Shown piece by piece: positions 25,115 through 31,246 of a stretch of 64,000 bases of DNA. Made by a program: the position numbers and the translations under genes. The notes below the pieces were generated by a model. It was not told where the DNA came from, did no database searches, and saw only the letters and a program-made list of their open reading frames with translations. This stretch comes from Escherichia phage vB_EcoM_ASO2A: the sequence record MZ726793.1; one strand, given 5' to 3'. The stretch's first letter is position 1. Every line of letters begins with the position of its first letter.

Positions 25115-25768
25115 CTATACCAGACTTTGAAGGTATTTGTCAAGTGCTTCTTGATCACCTTGACAAACATAGCAACGGAAGTCTTGAGCAGAAGGTTCTT
25201 TGTCCTCGTCCCAATCCCAATAGACAGTACCTTTATAGCGTGAGCCTGGGAACTCGAAGTATGCCACATGAGTAATATGGTGTGGGCCACCCCAAAACTC
25301 TGTAAAAGTAAATTGAGGATACGCTGCTTTAACTGTATTTTCAAACCAAGTTTTACGATCTAATGCTTCGTTTATAAAATAAGCATGGCGTTCCATTTCA
25401 TCCCACGTTTTCCAGACACTTCTCTCATCAGGAGAAAAGACAAGCCATTCTGGAAGGTAGAGAGTGTCATAGTAATCATCATATTCGATCTCGGAGACGC
25501 ACGAAGCTGACTCCTCCAGTTTTGAGTAATCAAAAGCAGAATATACCCACCAACCATCTTCCAGTAACGCTTTGATAGGGACGAAGCCTTTATCAGCATA
25601 TTGATCGAATTGTTTGACACGGTGGCTTGTGCAGTCTTCAAACTCACATTCTAAACGATATGCACCTTTTCGACGAGCCTCAAGACCGTGTGCACTGAAA
25701 ATAACAACACTTCCTTCACCATCATTACGATCTACTTGATAAGCAACTACTTGTTTTGAATTTGACAT
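25115..25768 (-). CDS. hypothetical protein (217 aa)
   Basis: SD taaggag, TAATG overlap. Confidence 0.65.
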   Translation of the reverse strand: MSNSKQVVAYQVDRNDGEGSVVIFSAHGLEARRKGAYRLECEFEDCTSHRVKQFDQYADKGFVPIKALLEDGWWVYSAFDYSKLEESASCVSEIEYDDYYDTLYLPEWLVFSPDERSVWKTWDEMERHAYFINEALDRKTWFENTVKAAYPQFTFTEFWGGPHHITHVAYFEFPGSRYKGTVYWDWDEDKEPSAQDFRCYVCQGDQEALDKYLQSLV

Positions 25769-26451
25769 TATTTCTCCTTATCTAGAAGATTGTTAGACAA
25801 AAACACTGCACGAGCAAAACCACGTGCGGTTAAGGATCTAAGTTGTTTTGTTTTTGCACTAGCTCCACCTAAGCTTTTCCAACCCCAGAAGCAGCCTATA
25901 TGATCTACTGGTTTCTTCACTGGTTGAACAAAACCATTGCCGTGCCAAATACAAGTTTTCTTTGTATACCCATCACGGGTAGGCATTTTAGGATGAAAGC
26001 TTCCTTCCTCTTCAAACAAATACCCACCATACTCATAAGGATCAAAGTAAAAATCGGGTTTACGCCATAAGGTTGAAAGTTTACCTACTGGGTTCTCAAT
26101 CATCCAAGGAACATTATATTTGTTACCCAAAGCTTCCACTACACGAATATTAGCTAAAGCTTCATCTAGTTCCTCTGTGCTACGTTCGTGTTTGCTACCA
26201 CTACCTGCTAACATAGTGCAAGGTGGAAATCCAAAAATAATATCGGGTTTAGGTATCCCATGATCTTCAGGGTTGAATGTAGAATCTATCCAGGCATTCA
26301 CATAGGTTATGTTTGGGTGCTCCATCCTAACCTCGTATTTACCGTGATCCCCTTCATCAGCGTTTACACAAAAACACTTGTGACCTGCTTCGGCATAACG
26401 TAACACCATAATCCCAGATCCGTCAAACATAGACAAAACTGTTTTACTCAT
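25768..26451 (-). CDS. cytosine-C5 methyltransferase-like protein (227 aa)
   Basis: SD ggagggg then ATG 26451. SMFDGSG (motif I-like), GFPPCT (PC motif), IENPVG (ENV-like). Shorter than canonical Dcm enzymes. Confidence 0.5.
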   Translation of the reverse strand: MSKTVLSMFDGSGIMVLRYAEAGHKCFCVNADEGDHGKYEVRMEHPNITYVNAWIDSTFNPEDHGIPKPDIIFGFPPCTMLAGSGSKHERSTEELDEALANIRVVEALGNKYNVPWMIENPVGKLSTLWRKPDFYFDPYEYGGYLFEEEGSFHPKMPTRDGYTKKTCIWHGNGFVQPVKKPVDHIGCFWGWKSLGGASAKTKQLRSLTARGFARAVFLSNNLLDKEK

Positions 26452-26839
26452 TACCCCTCCATTCAAGACAAGCCATAACTTTACGCCAATCACTTTCTGT
26501 AAGAAAAATCTCGTTTGCTTTCTTCCACAAATCTAAATCGTGAAGGGTTGGAATACGATATGTTAGTTCACAGAATCTATGCTCTTCTTCTGTAATATAA
26601 CCAAAATGCAGAGCCACATCGTGAAACCAACACCAACCATGCATCTCTCGAACAACATGGTCATGCTGAGACATTGTTTTATGCCGTAAACCTAACCAAC
26701 AAGGAACAGATACTTTAGTAGTCTTTAATCTGTGATCAACAGTATTAGAGTATTCAATAATAGCTGTCAGTTTCAATCGTGCTTTTTCTAAATCCTCATG
26801 GGTCACTTTGAAATAACTTTCTGAAAGATATCCACACAT
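26444..26839 (-). CDS. hypothetical protein (131 aa)
   Basis: SD aaggagg then ATG 26839 (track start is TTG 26857). Confidence 0.6.
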   Translation of the reverse strand: MCGYLSESYFKVTHEDLEKARLKLTAIIEYSNTVDHRLKTTKVSVPCWLGLRHKTMSQHDHVVREMHGWCWFHDVALHFGYITEEEHRFCELTYRIPTLHDLDLWKKANEIFLTESDWRKVMACLEWRGNE

Positions 26840-26840
26840 A

Positions 26841-27782
26841 TTAATAACCTCCTTCAAAAGGCTTAACTACATGTTGATTAGCTTTAAAACGTTCAACATA
26901 GTCGTTTTCGCCCATGTTTTCATATAGCTTAGTAACAACATAAAAGTTTTCCCAAGCATATTCCCTAAACCAACCACTAGTGATGGATGTGCAGACTTTA
27001 GATAAAGCCATTATAAAACTTTGCTTAGGGGTTGGACCTCCGATCTCTTCACCGAAAGGAATTTGTGAACGTTCCAAAGCCAAAACACACGCTTCTTCAT
27101 AAACACCTAACAGGCGCACATGTTTTGGTTGAGCAAAAAACTTTTCTTTGCTGGTCATAACTTCACTTCCATCTTTCATATAAGATTTATATGCTGGAGC
27201 ATCCATTAACGCGATTGCTTCATGGATAGAATCATGATCATAAACATAGGGAACCTCGTCACCTTTAAAGAAGTCTTTACTTTTTACGTTTAAGTTCGGA
27301 TGAGAGTAAGTGTATGTTTCTTTCTCACGTAACTCATAAATACTCTTAAGATTTTCTGGGATCTTTGCGCCCAGTGACCGCATGAAATGAATATCTTTCA
27401 TAGTTTTAAAGAAGTGAGGACTATCCTTTTTAAAACGATGACTCATTTTAAGAAGGTAGAGCACATCTAAAGGAGCAACAACATGTCCAGCGTAAGTTCG
27501 ACGAACATCATCAGAATCTTCACAATAACTAATCAAAGCTTCTGTGCTATCTCCTTGAGAAGCAATATCATATTCCAAATGTGCACCAGCTATCATTTTG
27601 ACGTGGCCTTTGTTCCTTTTACGTTCTACAAGTTCAACAAACTCGTCTTGAGAGAACATTTTTGATAATTCTTCCCACTCTTGTTCTGTACACAGGTAAT
27701 CTAAATCTACACAAGGGCGATACAAGTCTTTTCCCATGTCCATAGCATGAATTTGTAATGCACGGCTACCAATTAACACCAT
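26841..27782 (-). CDS. hypothetical protein (313 aa)
   Basis: SD agaggag; the N-terminal IGSRAL...DLDY faintly resembles a Pol-beta nucleotidyltransferase signature (weak). Confidence 0.65.
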   Translation of the reverse strand: MVLIGSRALQIHAMDMGKDLYRPCVDLDYLCTEQEWEELSKMFSQDEFVELVERKRNKGHVKMIAGAHLEYDIASQGDSTEALISYCEDSDDVRRTYAGHVVAPLDVLYLLKMSHRFKKDSPHFFKTMKDIHFMRSLGAKIPENLKSIYELREKETYTYSHPNLNVKSKDFFKGDEVPYVYDHDSIHEAIALMDAPAYKSYMKDGSEVMTSKEKFFAQPKHVRLLGVYEEACVLALERSQIPFGEEIGGPTPKQSFIMALSKVCTSITSGWFREYAWENFYVVTKLYENMGENDYVERFKANQHVVKPFEGGY

Positions 27783-27812: not shown

Positions 27813-27841
27813 AGTTTATCAAGCTTCCAGATTCCTGTCAA
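27813..27841 (-). promoter_or_regulatory. sigma70-type promoter
   Basis: minus strand TTGACA (27841-27836), 17 nt, TAAACT (27818-27813). Confidence 0.5.
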
Positions 27842-27864
27842 TAAAAAACCCGCCGAAGCGGGTT
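27842..27864 (-). terminator. Rho-independent terminator
   Basis: minus strand ACCCGCttcgGCGGGT + tttttt. Confidence 0.7.
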
Positions 27865-27872
27865 ATTATTTA

Positions 27873-28145
27873 CTAACACATTGAGGAAGAAGAGATCCAA
27901 ACACCTCTTGTGGTTAAACCATTTTCATCCAACTCTACACCATAATCTTCACAAATGAAATCAATATAGTGATCTGCGGCTGGCGTTCCTGTAGGGTAAT
28001 AAGTTTCTCCGTTACCGTAGTCACCTATCCAAGCTTGTTCCTGAAACTGTTCACAGAGTTCTTCAATTTCCTTACGAAACTTTCTTTGTGCTTGTTCCAT
28101 CTCTTTAACTTTCTTTTTTATCAGCAGTTCGCCTTCAGACTCCAC
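27873..28145 (-). CDS. small acidic protein ending ..GVWISSSSMC (W-x-S-S-x-C family, copy 1)
   Basis: SD aaggagag then GTG. Confidence 0.55.
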   Translation of the reverse strand: MESEGELLIKKKVKEMEQAQRKFRKEIEELCEQFQEQAWIGDYGNGETYYPTGTPAADHYIDFICEDYGVELDENGLTTRGVWISSSSMC

Positions 28146-28154
28146 AATCTCTCC

Positions 28155-28373
28155 TTAACAGCTACTACTGTGCCAAACGCCTTGAGAATTAACGACGAAA
28201 CCATCATCACCTTCACCATAACAAGAAGAGGATTGCCAATCTTCAAAACAGATTGCGTCATCTTCTAAGCTAAGACCAAAACCAGCATCTTCGGCTTCTT
28301 TTGTAAGTTCGTCCACTAAAGCCATAATAGCTTGGGCTTTTTCAGTTAATTCTTCAATGTTACGATAACTCAT
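28155..28373 (-). CDS. small acidic protein ending ..GVWHSSSC with internal DWQSSSC (family copy 2)
   Basis: SD agaggag then ATG 28373. Confidence 0.55.
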   Translation of the reverse strand: MSYRNIEELTEKAQAIMALVDELTKEAEDAGFGLSLEDDAICFEDWQSSSCYGEGDDGFVVNSQGVWHSSSC

Positions 28374-28642
28374 TAGTATTTCTCCTCTGGTTGGAAAACG
28401 GAACGACAGGCCCACATAGAAGCTTCTTTCAACTTAGTCTTTGCTATTGAAATTTGGTCAAGGCGGGTGGATATATTGGTAGACTCTTCCAAATCTTCAC
28501 AATCATCCAGTTCAGCCCACAATTCAGACATTAGAGCATCAAAGATTAATCCTAATCGAACTTCAGCATCTTTAATAGCATTCACTTTACCAATTTTGTC
28601 ATCGGTATGCGGTTTATAACCTTTGATATCTTCGATTCCCAC
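28373..28642 (-). CDS. hypothetical protein (89 aa)
   Basis: SD taggagg then GTG 28642. Confidence 0.5.
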   Translation of the reverse strand: MGIEDIKGYKPHTDDKIGKVNAIKDAEVRLGLIFDALMSELWAELDDCEDLEESTNISTRLDQISIAKTKLKEASMWACRSVFQPEEKY

Positions 28643-28653
28643 TTTACCTCCTA

Positions 28654-28851
28654 TTAACAACTTAAAGAAGATGGATGCCAATTTGTTCCAGTATTCTCAT
28701 TTTCATCTTCTGGATCATAATAACCACCCATCCCATATTCAGGAGAGAAACTGAAACCTTCACCAGTCTCGTCTGCTAACTGTTCTGCTTCCGCTAAAGC
28801 CTCATAAGCTGCTTTTACGGCTTCTTCTACTGTTTTAAACTTGGTCGTCAT
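28654..28851 (-). CDS. small acidic protein ending ..NWHPSSLSC (family copy 3)
   Basis: SD agaggag. Confidence 0.55.
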   Translation of the reverse strand: MTTKFKTVEEAVKAAYEALAEAEQLADETGEGFSFSPEYGMGGYYDPEDENENTGTNWHPSSLSC

Positions 28852-29125: not shown

Positions 29126-29616
29126 AAAACCTCCTCAATCTTGTAGTTTGACTCCATCTCCAACACATTTCCACGAACATCTCTCCGAAGAAAGGCATAA
29201 GCTTTATTAGGTATTGTAGACTCATATTTAACCATATCTGGCACAGCAAAAGATACTACTACTCCTGCTGGGCTTCTGTCAAGAGCCTTATTAATATTTC
29301 TAAGGATATCGTTAGCCAAGATTTCTGCCAATTCTCCAAGAACAGTTTCGGTTATATCTTTATATCCCATTAAATATTTGTTGATATCTTTCATCTCTGT
29401 ATTGTTCAGAGTATAGTCTAAAGGATAAAAATTCAAAGAGGAGTCACTTTTATGTGTCCACATGAAATGCACCCGATCCGAGCAGAATCGTAACCCTCTA
29501 CGAAGAATATCTTCTACAACAGGGAGAATTTCTTTTGTCACATCATTAACCATGTTGTAATCTAAGATTTCTGCCAAGTTTGTTCTTTGTTCACCACGTT
29601 TACGTCTAGGAATCAC
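29104..29616 (-). CDS. hypothetical protein (170 aa)
   Basis: GTG start after gaggg; start uncertain. Confidence 0.5.
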   Translation of the reverse strand: MIPRRKRGEQRTNLAEILDYNMVNDVTKEILPVVEDILRRGLRFCSDRVHFMWTHKSDSSLNFYPLDYTLNNTEMKDINKYLMGYKDITETVLGELAEILANDILRNINKALDRSPAGVVVSFAVPDMVKYESTIPNKAYAFLRRDVRGNVLEMESNYKIEEVLWQSSDQ

Positions 29617-30187
29617 TTGTTATTGCCCTCATTACCAAAGGTCGTAGAAAATCGTAAATCTCTTGTTTTGTTTTCCCACGAATGTTTAAACAAGGAACAT
29701 TATTGGCTTTAGCTATCTTCCAAGCCGTAGCTGTTCCACCTTTTGCATCTCCATGTTTATCAGTATTAGTACAAGCCAACAAGAAACATGATGGAGCAGG
29801 ATTCTCCAAATCTCTGCCTAACACTTGATGCACATTACGTTGGTGCAATTTTCTAGCACCCTGCTTAAGCTTTTCATAAGCTGGGTGAACATCTTTGATC
29901 CATTGCACAGAGATAGCATAGTTCATTGTATCTGGTTTTGCAAGAACAATAACATCACCTGGAATCTGATTACCTTTGAAATTTTCCCAAGGAACATAAA
30001 TTTCCTTGTTAGTAGGATTTTCAGACTCTTGGACACCTGTTTCAAAAGCAGAATCACTACCCTCTGCCTTACCAGACCGTAATTTAAACCCAAGGTTTGA
30101 AAGCCATTTCCCTATGCCTACCATCAAAGCCCACTCTTCTTCAGATATGTCCCTACTTCCAACTCCCGTATAGAACAGTTCTGCCAT
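29606..30187 (-). CDS. Rossmann-fold SLOG/DprA-like nucleotide-binding protein (193 aa)
   Basis: SD gaggtg then ATG 30187; FYTGVGSR ... SGKAEGSDSAF pattern. Confidence 0.4.
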   Translation of the reverse strand: MAELFYTGVGSRDISEEEWALMVGIGKWLSNLGFKLRSGKAEGSDSAFETGVQESENPTNKEIYVPWENFKGNQIPGDVIVLAKPDTMNYAISVQWIKDVHPAYEKLKQGARKLHQRNVHQVLGRDLENPAPSCFLLACTNTDKHGDAKGGTATAWKIAKANNVPCLNIRGKTKQEIYDFLRPLVMRAITSDS

Positions 30188-30194
30188 AATCACC

Positions 30195-30503
30195 TCAACA
30201 AGTAATTTCAAAAGGTGTATAGGGTTCCGTATTTCTCATAATCCAAGGACTGCTAGGATTGCTCGGATCATAAGGACCAAAAGGTTTTATGGTAGGTTGT
30301 GTTTCTTTCTTCTGAATCTCTTCAAAAATACGACGAAGTTCAGAATATTCTTGATCCACCATAAGATTCGGTGCATCTGATTCTACAGTTTGCAGGTTAT
30401 CTTCCTTAAGAACAATCTCACGAACAAGATTAACATCTTCTGTTTCTAAGATAACTTCTTTACGGATATTACCTACACTTTGAATAATTGTAATTTTATA
30501 CAT
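30195..30503 (-). CDS. hypothetical protein (102 aa)
   Basis: SD tgaggagg, TAATG overlap. Confidence 0.6.
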   Translation of the reverse strand: MYKITIIQSVGNIRKEVILETEDVNLVREIVLKEDNLQTVESDAPNLMVDQEYSELRRIFEEIQKKETQPTIKPFGPYDPSNPSSPWIMRNTEPYTPFEITC

Positions 30504-31246
30504 TAATCCTCCTCAAGAGTTGAATAAAATTGAAGACCACCATCCATATCGAAATAAGCAAATGTTAAGTTATTATTGAACACAGATCCAGTATCCATAT
30601 AAACACGATTCGCATTGATAATAGGTGTTTTTACATAAGAGTGTCCATGAAACACATAATCCACACCCATCACAACAGGAAGTTTCATTCCCTCTTTAGC
30701 ACAGTCTACCATATCTCTGTCCCACATAAGTGCTTCAGCAAAACGGTTTTCCTGTGTTTTTGTCATCTTCGAAATGTATTCTGGAAGATCTGTTACAGGG
30801 AGATATTCCAAAGAAGATGGATACCCACCATGAATAAACGCAAGTTTCATGCCTCTGTAGTTAACAATGAGAACAACAGGTAAATCTTCTGTCATCATTG
30901 CTAAGGCTGTAGCTCCTTCTTCACCACATTCTTCAAATACCGTATATCCTCCATTTTGATACCAACACTCGTAGTAGCTACGATCTCCTTCCAGCATACC
31001 TTTAATCATCATGTCTTCATGATTGCCACGAATAGCGTAGCGATTGTGTTTACGAGTAAATTCTAAAACACAACGAAAGTTTTGCTTTCCACGATCAGTA
31101 AGATCTCCTAAAGATACAACTACATCTGTATCTCGGATACCTAACTTTGCCTTTCCTTTTTCATACAGATTATAACAACCATGTAGATCTCCAATTATAA
31201 AAAGGTCTTGATCGCTTTTAACAGTAATTTCTCTATGTATGATCAC
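30503..31246 (-). CDS. Ser/Thr protein phosphatase (lambda PPase-type metallophosphoesterase)
   Basis: GDLHGC, GDLTDRG, RGNHE, HGG, GH motifs; SD gaggagg then GTG. Confidence 0.9.
   Translation of the reverse strand: MIIHREITVKSDQDLFIIGDLHGCYNLYEKGKAKLGIRDTDVVVSLGDLTDRGKQNFRCVLEFTRKHNRYAIRGNHEDMMIKGMLEGDRSYYECWYQNGGYTVFEECGEEGATALAMMTEDLPVVLIVNYRGMKLAFIHGGYPSSLEYLPVTDLPEYISKMTKTQENRFAEALMWDRDMVDCAKEGMKLPVVMGVDYVFHGHSYVKTPIINANRVYMDTGSVFNNNLTFAYFDMDGGLQFYSTLEED

Follow-up and report, generated by a model that had tools for sequence, protein, structure and literature searches.

The genes of interest lie in a 64,000-nt stretch of Escherichia phage vB_EcoM_ASO2A (sequence record MZ726793.1), referred to below as the window. 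The phage is a Phapecoctavirus, i.e., a phAPEC8-like E. coli myovirus with a genome of ~150 kb, and the region in question is 99.9% identical to OQ031492 and MT944117. It contains (i) three small genes, A, B and C, encoding acidic proteins that share a C-terminal Trp/Ser-Ser/Cys tail, and (ii) downstream of these, a gene for a putative enzyme with the Pfam domains DUF7277 and DUF7275. The small-gene array and the enzyme gene form a conserved two-part module, which is common to unrelated phage groups while the neighbouring genes change. Our tentative explanation, to which we assign a probability of about 0.4, is that the partner is a nucleotidyltransferase that acts on the tails of the small proteins (its clients), and that the bodies of the paralogues address different targets.

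The three small genes all lie on the minus strand, each behind a good Shine-Dalgarno sequence. Gene A (positions 27873–28145; phAPEC8 gp191) has a GTG start and encodes a 90-amino acid (aa) protein with the turn YGNGETYYP and the C-terminus GVWISSSSMC; its tail, W-I-S-S-S-S-M-C, is encoded at 27876–27899. Gene B (28155–28373; phAPEC8 gp190) encodes 72 aa of a divergent subtype, in which an internal W-Q-S-S-S-C (28221–28238, within DWQSSSC) is fused to YGEGD, and a second copy, W-H-S-S-S-C (28158–28175), ends the protein (...GVWHSSSC). Gene C (28654–28851; phAPEC8 gp188) encodes 65 aa of the canonical subtype, with YGMGG at 28723–28737, the tail W-H-P-S-S-L-S-C at 28657–28680 and the C-terminus NWHPSSLSC. 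The isoelectric points of A, B and C are 4.40, 4.05 and 4.05, and their net charges −10, −13 and −11. An earlier, sequence-only reading of the window had picked out these three open reading frames (ORFs) by their common layout and Trp/Ser/Cys ending, and both features are borne out. The window has 1077 stop-to-stop segments of 30 aa or more; 50 of these end in Cys, and a W.{0,3}SS.{0,3}C ending is confined to A, B and C. All three match the C-terminal part of phrog_899, a family of unknown function (E values of 5.1e-14, 5.6e-6 and 1.4e-13, respectively), and are thus paralogues. One further protein of the region, encoded at 30195–30503 on the minus strand (102 aa; phrog_15301, function unknown), also ends in Cys (...PFEITC); it lacks the Trp/Ser-Ser motif and gives no match to the family.

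The wider family was sampled in two sets. The first comes from a profile search that returned 115 proteins, for which 117 sequences were fetched; the second consists of 140 new representatives from a profile search that covered 1.84 billion cluster representatives exhaustively. The latter search places the family at 976 representatives at E ≤ 1e-3, or 541 at E ≤ 1e-10 (clusters at 50% identity). Absence of the motif from homologues in other phages had been named as one of the results that would count against a role for the tail. Instead, W-x-x-S-S-x-x-C stands exactly at the C-terminus of 116 of the 117 and 137 of the 140 sequences (253 of 257 diverse members), so the idea survives. This is also the motif's true form: the sequence-only reading had the Trp, the Ser-Ser and the Cys right, but wrote them as W-x-S-S-x-C, missing the fixed spacing and the fact that B belongs to a shorter subtype. 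Both Ser residues and the final Cys are invariant in the first set. Each of the three deviants in the second extends one residue beyond the Cys; in two of these the S-S pair reads S-T, a replacement that retains the hydroxyl. In nearly all of the 150 representatives listed (of the 976), the last residue of the protein is also the end of the profile match.

Two further points emerge from the alignments. Firstly, the acidic, Gly/Tyr-rich linker described earlier is indeed present, but it includes a second near-invariant motif, YGMGG, found in 100 members of the first set; the motif takes the form YGNGE in subtype A and YGEGD in B, and its Tyr is replaced by Trp in a few members. Secondly, all six Ser codons are in use at the two invariant Ser positions, indicating that selection acts at the level of the protein rather than the DNA. 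Net charge in the first set ranges from −4 to −13, and the terminal Cys is the only Cys in 79 of the 117 and 91 of the 140 proteins. Among paralogues, the helix and acidic loop of the body vary in both sequence and length, while the last eight residues are nearly invariant. The tail is hence close to being the most conserved feature of a family of ~1000 clusters, a conclusion for which support is strong, and the proposal that it is the functional part of these proteins is strongly supported by the same near-invariance.

Subtypes A, B and C are common to Phapecoctavirus and T4-like phages. The tail is kept in the close homologues of C and of A, the relatives of the latter including proteins from T4-like phages such as PEi20 and Entb_45. 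B-type proteins, whose orthologues recur in JS98, PEi20 and Aeromonas phage AS-zj, have a terminal tail, W-x-x-S-S-C, that is two residues shorter, and carry a further, internal copy that is joined directly to YGE(G/E). A metagenomic member (contig L015, 10236–10466, plus strand) contains two W-D-S-S-D-C copies and has the C-terminus ...CEY. Given the internal copies in this member and in the B-type proteins, the motif behaves as a unit that can also stand away from the C-terminus. Members with N-terminal extensions showed no informative fusions in Pfam scans. In JS98, a fifth family member of 69 aa, ending in FWFSSSMSC, lies between orf127 and orf126 (L002, 4694–4903, plus strand) and is unannotated in the GenBank record. 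The T4 protein Tk.1 (L004, 4347–4535, minus strand; 62 aa) matches the profile of the family weakly, at 16 bits (E = 5.6e-4, with T4 ORFs as the only targets). It contains ...SFEISSEYGDAETYY... and does not have the W..SS..C tail; Tk.1 may be a tail-less remnant of the family.

The gene that accompanies the small genes lies at 26841–27782 in the window (minus strand; phAPEC8 gp192) and starts 91 bp downstream of A. Its 313-aa product consists of DUF7277 (residues 1–87; Pfam E = 6e-14) and DUF7275 (residues 107–297; E = 1e-75). It is 43% identical (E = 5e-86) to orf122 of JS98, which is encoded just downstream of that phage's five-gene family array. The generality of the arrangement was assessed in 42 diverse viral contigs found by the YGMGG motif, in which ORFs were called and all neighbours clustered. 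Among 45 loci, 43 contain the ~300-aa enzyme family exactly once, on the same strand and beside the small-gene array, and the enzyme gene usually starts no more than ~1.3 kb past the final small gene. In the other two, the contig breaks off shortly after the small gene, before the position of the enzyme. Aside from the small proteins themselves, the next commonest neighbour family occurs in 12 of the 45 loci. Sampling in reverse, from the enzyme, gave phages of Acinetobacter, Pseudomonas, Stenotrophomonas, Aeromonas and Acidovorax, all of which carry one to four adjacent tail-bearing genes (downstream of the enzyme in the Stenotrophomonas phage). Overall, the enzyme lies beside small genes in 49 of 51 loci, the remaining two being cut-off contigs; arrays comprise one to six paralogues per locus. 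Both DUF7277 and DUF7275 are present in all 28 homologues tested. The sequence-only reading saw no modifying enzyme nearby; that statement is overturned by a DUF7277+DUF7275 protein with a nucleotidyltransferase-type motif beside the small genes in every complete locus examined. A terminal tail this conserved, together with a dedicated enzyme, suggests chemistry rather than just binding.

Between the array and the enzyme gene, directly after the A stop codon, lies a terminator-like GC-rich hairpin followed by a T run (27847–27864, minus strand), and upstream of the enzyme gene a promoter-like site, TTGACA-17-TAAACT with TG (27813–27841, minus strand; 10 of 12 matches). Both are consensus matches only. 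The phAPEC8 record marks a terminator at the same place as the hairpin, while the number of such promoter-like sites in the region is not above shuffle expectation. A hairpin in this position would mean that more small protein than enzyme is made.

The module is almost entirely restricted to phages as far as its small proteins are concerned. A survey of 185,579 bacterial and archaeal species (one genome each) gave a single match, in a Flavobacterium contig from a metagenome-assembled genome; there, too, the enzyme is encoded downstream. No match to the module DNA was found in 5,426 complete E. coli genomes, and the enzyme gives only three distant matches among 72,556 plasmids. By tblastn, the enzyme is present in 734 of 50,697 sequenced phage genomes. 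Carriers include T-even relatives of the RB69/JS98 type, phAPEC8-like therapy candidates, and Acinetobacter, Aeromonas and Pseudomonas phages. Positions 1–76,000 of T4 contain no DUF7275 enzyme, and the sole small-protein-like match in that stretch is the tail-less Tk.1.

What kind of enzyme is the partner likely to be? Residue conservation was assessed in 28 diverse homologues, whose identity to the window protein is 37–51%. Four residues (G5, S6, D26 and D28) do not vary at all, and a fifth, E70, is conserved to ~90%, which gives the hG[GS]...[DE]h[DE]h...carboxylate pattern of nucleotidyltransferases of the DNA polymerase beta (Pol-beta) type, with a spacer of 19 residues that is longer than the classic 9–13. 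DUF7275 contributes the invariant polar residues K112, S114, H115, K126, T127, R152, H183, D184, H187, E229, E230, E237, R238, K262 and R273. Three independent GenBank records carry the label "(putative) nucleotidyltransferase", and one of the 28 members gives a weak match to NTP_transf_5 (E = 0.11). From these motifs we infer that the partner is a Pol-beta-fold nucleotidyltransferase, an assignment that is made at the level of motifs because none of the profile and structure methods used confirmed the fold. Searches of the enzyme against PHROGs return families of unknown function only, and BLASTP against T4 NrdC.10 and NrdC.11 reveals no homology.

Distant enzymes, 27–37% identical to that of the window, occur in Gordonia, Streptomyces, Vibrio and roseobacter phages (L048, L049, L050 and L051) and keep the hGSxA...DhD core. 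DUF7277 is covered at all 87 positions in the partner-linked enzymes, but over the first 29–45 positions only in these distant, partner-less ones. The difference makes residues ~30–87 of the window enzyme a candidate docking region for the small proteins. The neighbours of the distant enzymes include a tRNA cluster, a polynucleotide kinase, and RNA ligase 2 with a metallophosphoesterase; they hint at an ancestral role related to RNA.

The structure of the small proteins was predicted from C with AlphaFold2, using a 64-sequence alignment (predicted local distance difference test, pLDDT, 90.3; predicted template modelling score 0.73). The model has a helix (residues 8–29) and three strands (33–35, 43–45 and 58–60), with YGMGG forming the turn between strands one and two and the Trp lying within the third strand. 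The body is predicted at pLDDT >90, while the last five residues average ~65, which suggests that the tail is flexible. A Foldseek search of BFVD with this model matched only uncharacterized members of the same family, and sequence and profile searches of PDB with the small proteins gave coiled-coil noise and no relative. A double-glycine leader, cleaved after YGMGG, was considered and ruled out: subtype A has YGNGE at this point, and the motif sits inside a confidently folded sheet.

The predicted fold bears directly on the suggestion, made from the sequence, that the small proteins are precursors of ribosomally synthesized and post-translationally modified peptides (RiPPs) of the lanthipeptide type. 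Under this explanation the helix would be a leader, and the Ser residues would be dehydrated and cyclized onto the terminal Cys by a known class of RiPP enzyme or by the host decarboxylase Dfp, of the homo-oligomeric flavin-containing Cys decarboxylase (HFCD) family; the product would be a lanthipeptide or contain aminovinylcysteine (AviCys). The S-x-x-C-COOH spacing equals that of the AviCys and lanthionine rings of epidermin-type peptides, and several "precursor" genes do lie beside one enzyme gene with a hairpin between. Against this, the proteins contain a confidently predicted folded alpha+beta domain (pLDDT 90), their conservation is the reverse of that in a precursor (the tail is invariant and the "leader" variable), and the B-type S-S-C tail is too short for the usual ring. 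The screen of neighbouring ORFs for RiPP-type enzymes that had been suggested yielded the DUF7277+DUF7275 partner, but no RiPP family: Pfam and NCBIfam scans of ten neighbouring proteins reveal no LanB/C/M/KC/L, LanD/HFCD, YcaO or radical S-adenosylmethionine enzyme. A classical lanthipeptide or RiPP identity is not supported, and we regard it as extremely improbable.

We favour a mechanism in which the small proteins would be protein substrates, or clients, of the partner enzyme. The exposed tail would enter the enzyme pocket, and a hydroxyl of the invariant Ser-Ser would receive a nucleoside monophosphate or a nucleotide-linked group. The Ser hydroxyls are the likeliest acceptors because they are invariant, with Thr as the only replacement seen. 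The thiol and carboxylate of the terminal Cys, together with the Trp, may serve as elements of recognition or of follow-up chemistry. Finally, the variable and highly acidic bodies of the paralogues could be directed at different targets in the host, plausibly proteins that act in immunity or bind nucleic acids; for this last step we cite the accessory-gene setting and an Acb2-like gene that is enclosed in the array (see below).

Several observations weigh against client modification by a nucleotidyltransferase. With regard to the enzyme, phmmer and profile searches of PDB gave no match, nor did NCBIfam, and a PADLOC scan of the 28 homologues gave no relevant match (MNT-HEPN, AbiE or CBASS, the antiphage system whose signalling is based on cyclic oligonucleotides). 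Comparison by hhalign with E. coli Cca and GlnE and with T4 NrdC.11 gave probabilities below 1%, a weak test in that the targets were single sequences, and a single-sequence AlphaFold model of the enzyme is unusable (pLDDT 34). With regard to the pairing, no tail-bearing gene lies near the distant enzymes of the actinophages, Vibrio phages and roseobacter phages; an enzyme family that exists without small partners has a core activity that is independent of them. Across 41 loci, enzyme identity and small-protein identity do not co-vary (rho = −0.06), a comparison that is confounded by the choice of paralogue. With regard to the chemistry, known protein-modifying Pol-beta enzymes usually use a Tyr acceptor, and the Tyr of the small-protein family, that of YGMGG, is Trp in a few members. 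The host target of the small proteins is, moreover, pure conjecture.

The existence of partner-less enzymes raises another explanation, in which the small proteins look like an add-on that regulates or inhibits the enzyme (as an antitoxin or a "cysteine switch") or provides exchangeable specificity subunits. The tail would then plug the active site, with the thiolate or carboxylate of the Cys on a metal, and the real substrate would be another molecule, such as a nucleic acid or a host protein. Strict adjacency fits this equally well; the invariant H115, H183, D184, H187, E229 and E230 could form a metal site; and the small proteins are acidic, whereas the conserved residues of the enzyme pocket are largely basic. 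On the other hand, an inhibitor would not usually come as one to six divergent paralogues per enzyme, an antitoxin is seldom needed by virulent phages, and neither PADLOC nor toxin-antitoxin families gave a match. The order of terminator then promoter also speaks against it, in suggesting that the small proteins are in excess. Taken together, we consider regulation by the tail unlikely.

A third explanation emphasizes the surroundings of the module. Between B and C, at 28373–28642 on the minus strand, lies a gene for an 89-aa protein with an Acb2/Tad1 hairpin domain (GTG start; Pfam E = 1.3e-19), a homologue of the nucleotide sponges with which phages counter CBASS and Thoeris; its stop codon overlaps the start of B (TAATG). 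The small proteins could be seen as stand-alone effectors of host takeover or anti-defence—acidic mimics or decoys that use their Cys tail to bind a metal or thiol of the host target—with the enzyme belonging to the same pathway without touching them. Their isoelectric point of ~4 and the negative net charge throughout the family (−4 to −13) are in line with this, as are the accessory-gene region with its enclosed Acb2/Tad1-hairpin gene, the variable paralogue bodies (as an arms race would give), and the occurrence of the module in phage sequences only, with its essential absence from cellular genomes. Yet the Acb2-like gene occurs near the array in just 7 of 45 loci and is missing from L025, a related contig with the equivalent C-B-A array, indicating a lineage-specific insertion rather than a part of the module; A, B and C themselves do not match the Acb2/Tad1 hairpin domain in Pfam. 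Strict, order-preserving adjacency to the enzyme while other neighbours change is, furthermore, hard to explain without a direct functional link. Effectors acting independently of the enzyme therefore strike us as quite unlikely.

A general link between the module and tRNA genes was rejected, since tRNA genes lie within 10 kb in just 10 of 41 loci. The same count bears on a fourth explanation, namely that the small proteins are persulfide carriers similar to DsrC and TusE, the terminal Cys delivering sulfur to a tRNA or nucleotide that the partner has adenylated. A flexible C-terminal arm ending in an invariant Cys, which is mostly the only Cys of the protein, is what such a carrier would look like; the partner, if a nucleotidyltransferase, could plausibly do the adenylating; and in T4-like phages tRNA genes are found close to the module, as tRNA or RNA-repair genes are to the enzyme in some distant phages. 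Besides the low tRNA-gene count, there is no match to the DsrC/TusE fold or sequence, and the invariant Trp, the Ser-Ser and the multiple paralogues are left unexplained. Known thiolation enzymes are, in addition, PP-loop ATPases and not Pol-beta enzymes. We judge a sulfur carrier to be very improbable.

Client modification by the partner can also be taken a step further, to an undescribed protein-modification system of virulent phages. In such a system the enzyme would activate the Ser-Ser. The product would be either a nucleotide linked to the protein or, if elimination and attack by the Cys follow, a thioether ring. The tail would become a warhead or cofactor directed against host targets, with target specificity provided by the paralogue bodies; the whole would be an analogue of RiPP chemistry on folded proteins. 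This extended version we hold to be doubtful, and rather improbable as a whole.

How does the module compare with systems that are already known? The closest parallels to the favoured mechanism are the Pol-beta pairs GlnD–PII, GlnE–glutamine synthetase, MNT–HEPN and Legionella DrrA–Rab1. As in the phage pair, an enzyme with a G-S...D-x-D motif is encoded beside, or acts on, a specific small protein, and the acceptor residue sits in the client, on a loop or tail that is flexible. That acceptor is a Tyr, however, whereas the candidates in the phage tail are the Ser-Ser and the terminal Cys; the known pairs have no counterpart to the phage client family, the DUF7275 domain or the arrays of multiple paralogues, and no homology was detected at the profile level. 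Transfer to Ser is known from CitX–CitD and MdcG–MdcC, the holo-acyl carrier protein synthases of citrate lyase and malonate decarboxylase (Enzyme Commission numbers 2.7.7.61 and 2.7.7.66) and their substrates: here, an enzyme of the nucleotidyltransferase class places a nucleotide-derived, thiol-bearing prosthetic group on a Ser of a small acidic carrier. The phage module differs in that there is no sequence match, no CitG/MdcB-type precursor synthase occurs among the phage neighbours examined, and the acceptor would sit in a C-terminal tail that already bears a thiol of its own.

The remaining likenesses concern the small proteins. EpiA, with EpiB, EpiC and EpiD, resembles the module in having a short product with a helical N-terminal part and a Ser/Cys C-terminus that ends in Cys, and in the placement of several precursor-like genes beside one enzyme gene. 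The phage set differs in its lack of a known RiPP enzyme, its invariant rather than hypervariable tail, its folded body, its phage setting and its lack of an export signal. DsrC and TusE are likewise small proteins with a flexible C-terminal arm, in which a Cys at the last position or beside it is strictly conserved, but they have another fold and no sequence similarity, the phage encodes no sulfur-relay partners, and the invariant Trp and Ser-Ser are not theirs. The mimics Ocr, Arn and ArdA and the Acb2/Tad sponges share small size, a very low isoelectric point and an accessory-gene location with the phage proteins (an Acb2-like gene being found inside the array itself); there is no homology or fold match, and they all lack both a defined Cys tail at the C-terminus and an obligate partner enzyme.

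The region around the module looks like a block of accessory or host-interaction genes. The minus-strand genes at 25768–26493, 29606–30211 and 30503–31246 have phAPEC8 counterparts whose annotations read, in that order, DNA methyltransferase, DprA-like protein (phrog_768) and NinI-like Ser/Thr phosphatase. Further downstream, phAPEC8 carries a Sir2-like gene.

In the literature we found nothing relevant on either the small-protein family or the enzyme, both of which are catalogued only as families of unknown function. While the sequences themselves are already present in public phage genomes, we could not find a description of the motif-defined family, of its linkage to the enzyme, or of any function. 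If the tail is modified, the module would add both a post-translational modification of a new kind and phage effectors of a new class; if the modification is simple nucleotidylylation of Ser, it would be better seen as a variant of the known enzyme-and-client nucleotidyltransferase pairs. If, alternatively, the tail plugs the enzyme, a nucleotidyltransferase would be regulated here in a novel manner. Either outcome would annotate thousands of "hypothetical" genes, in a group that includes genetically tractable phages of E. coli.

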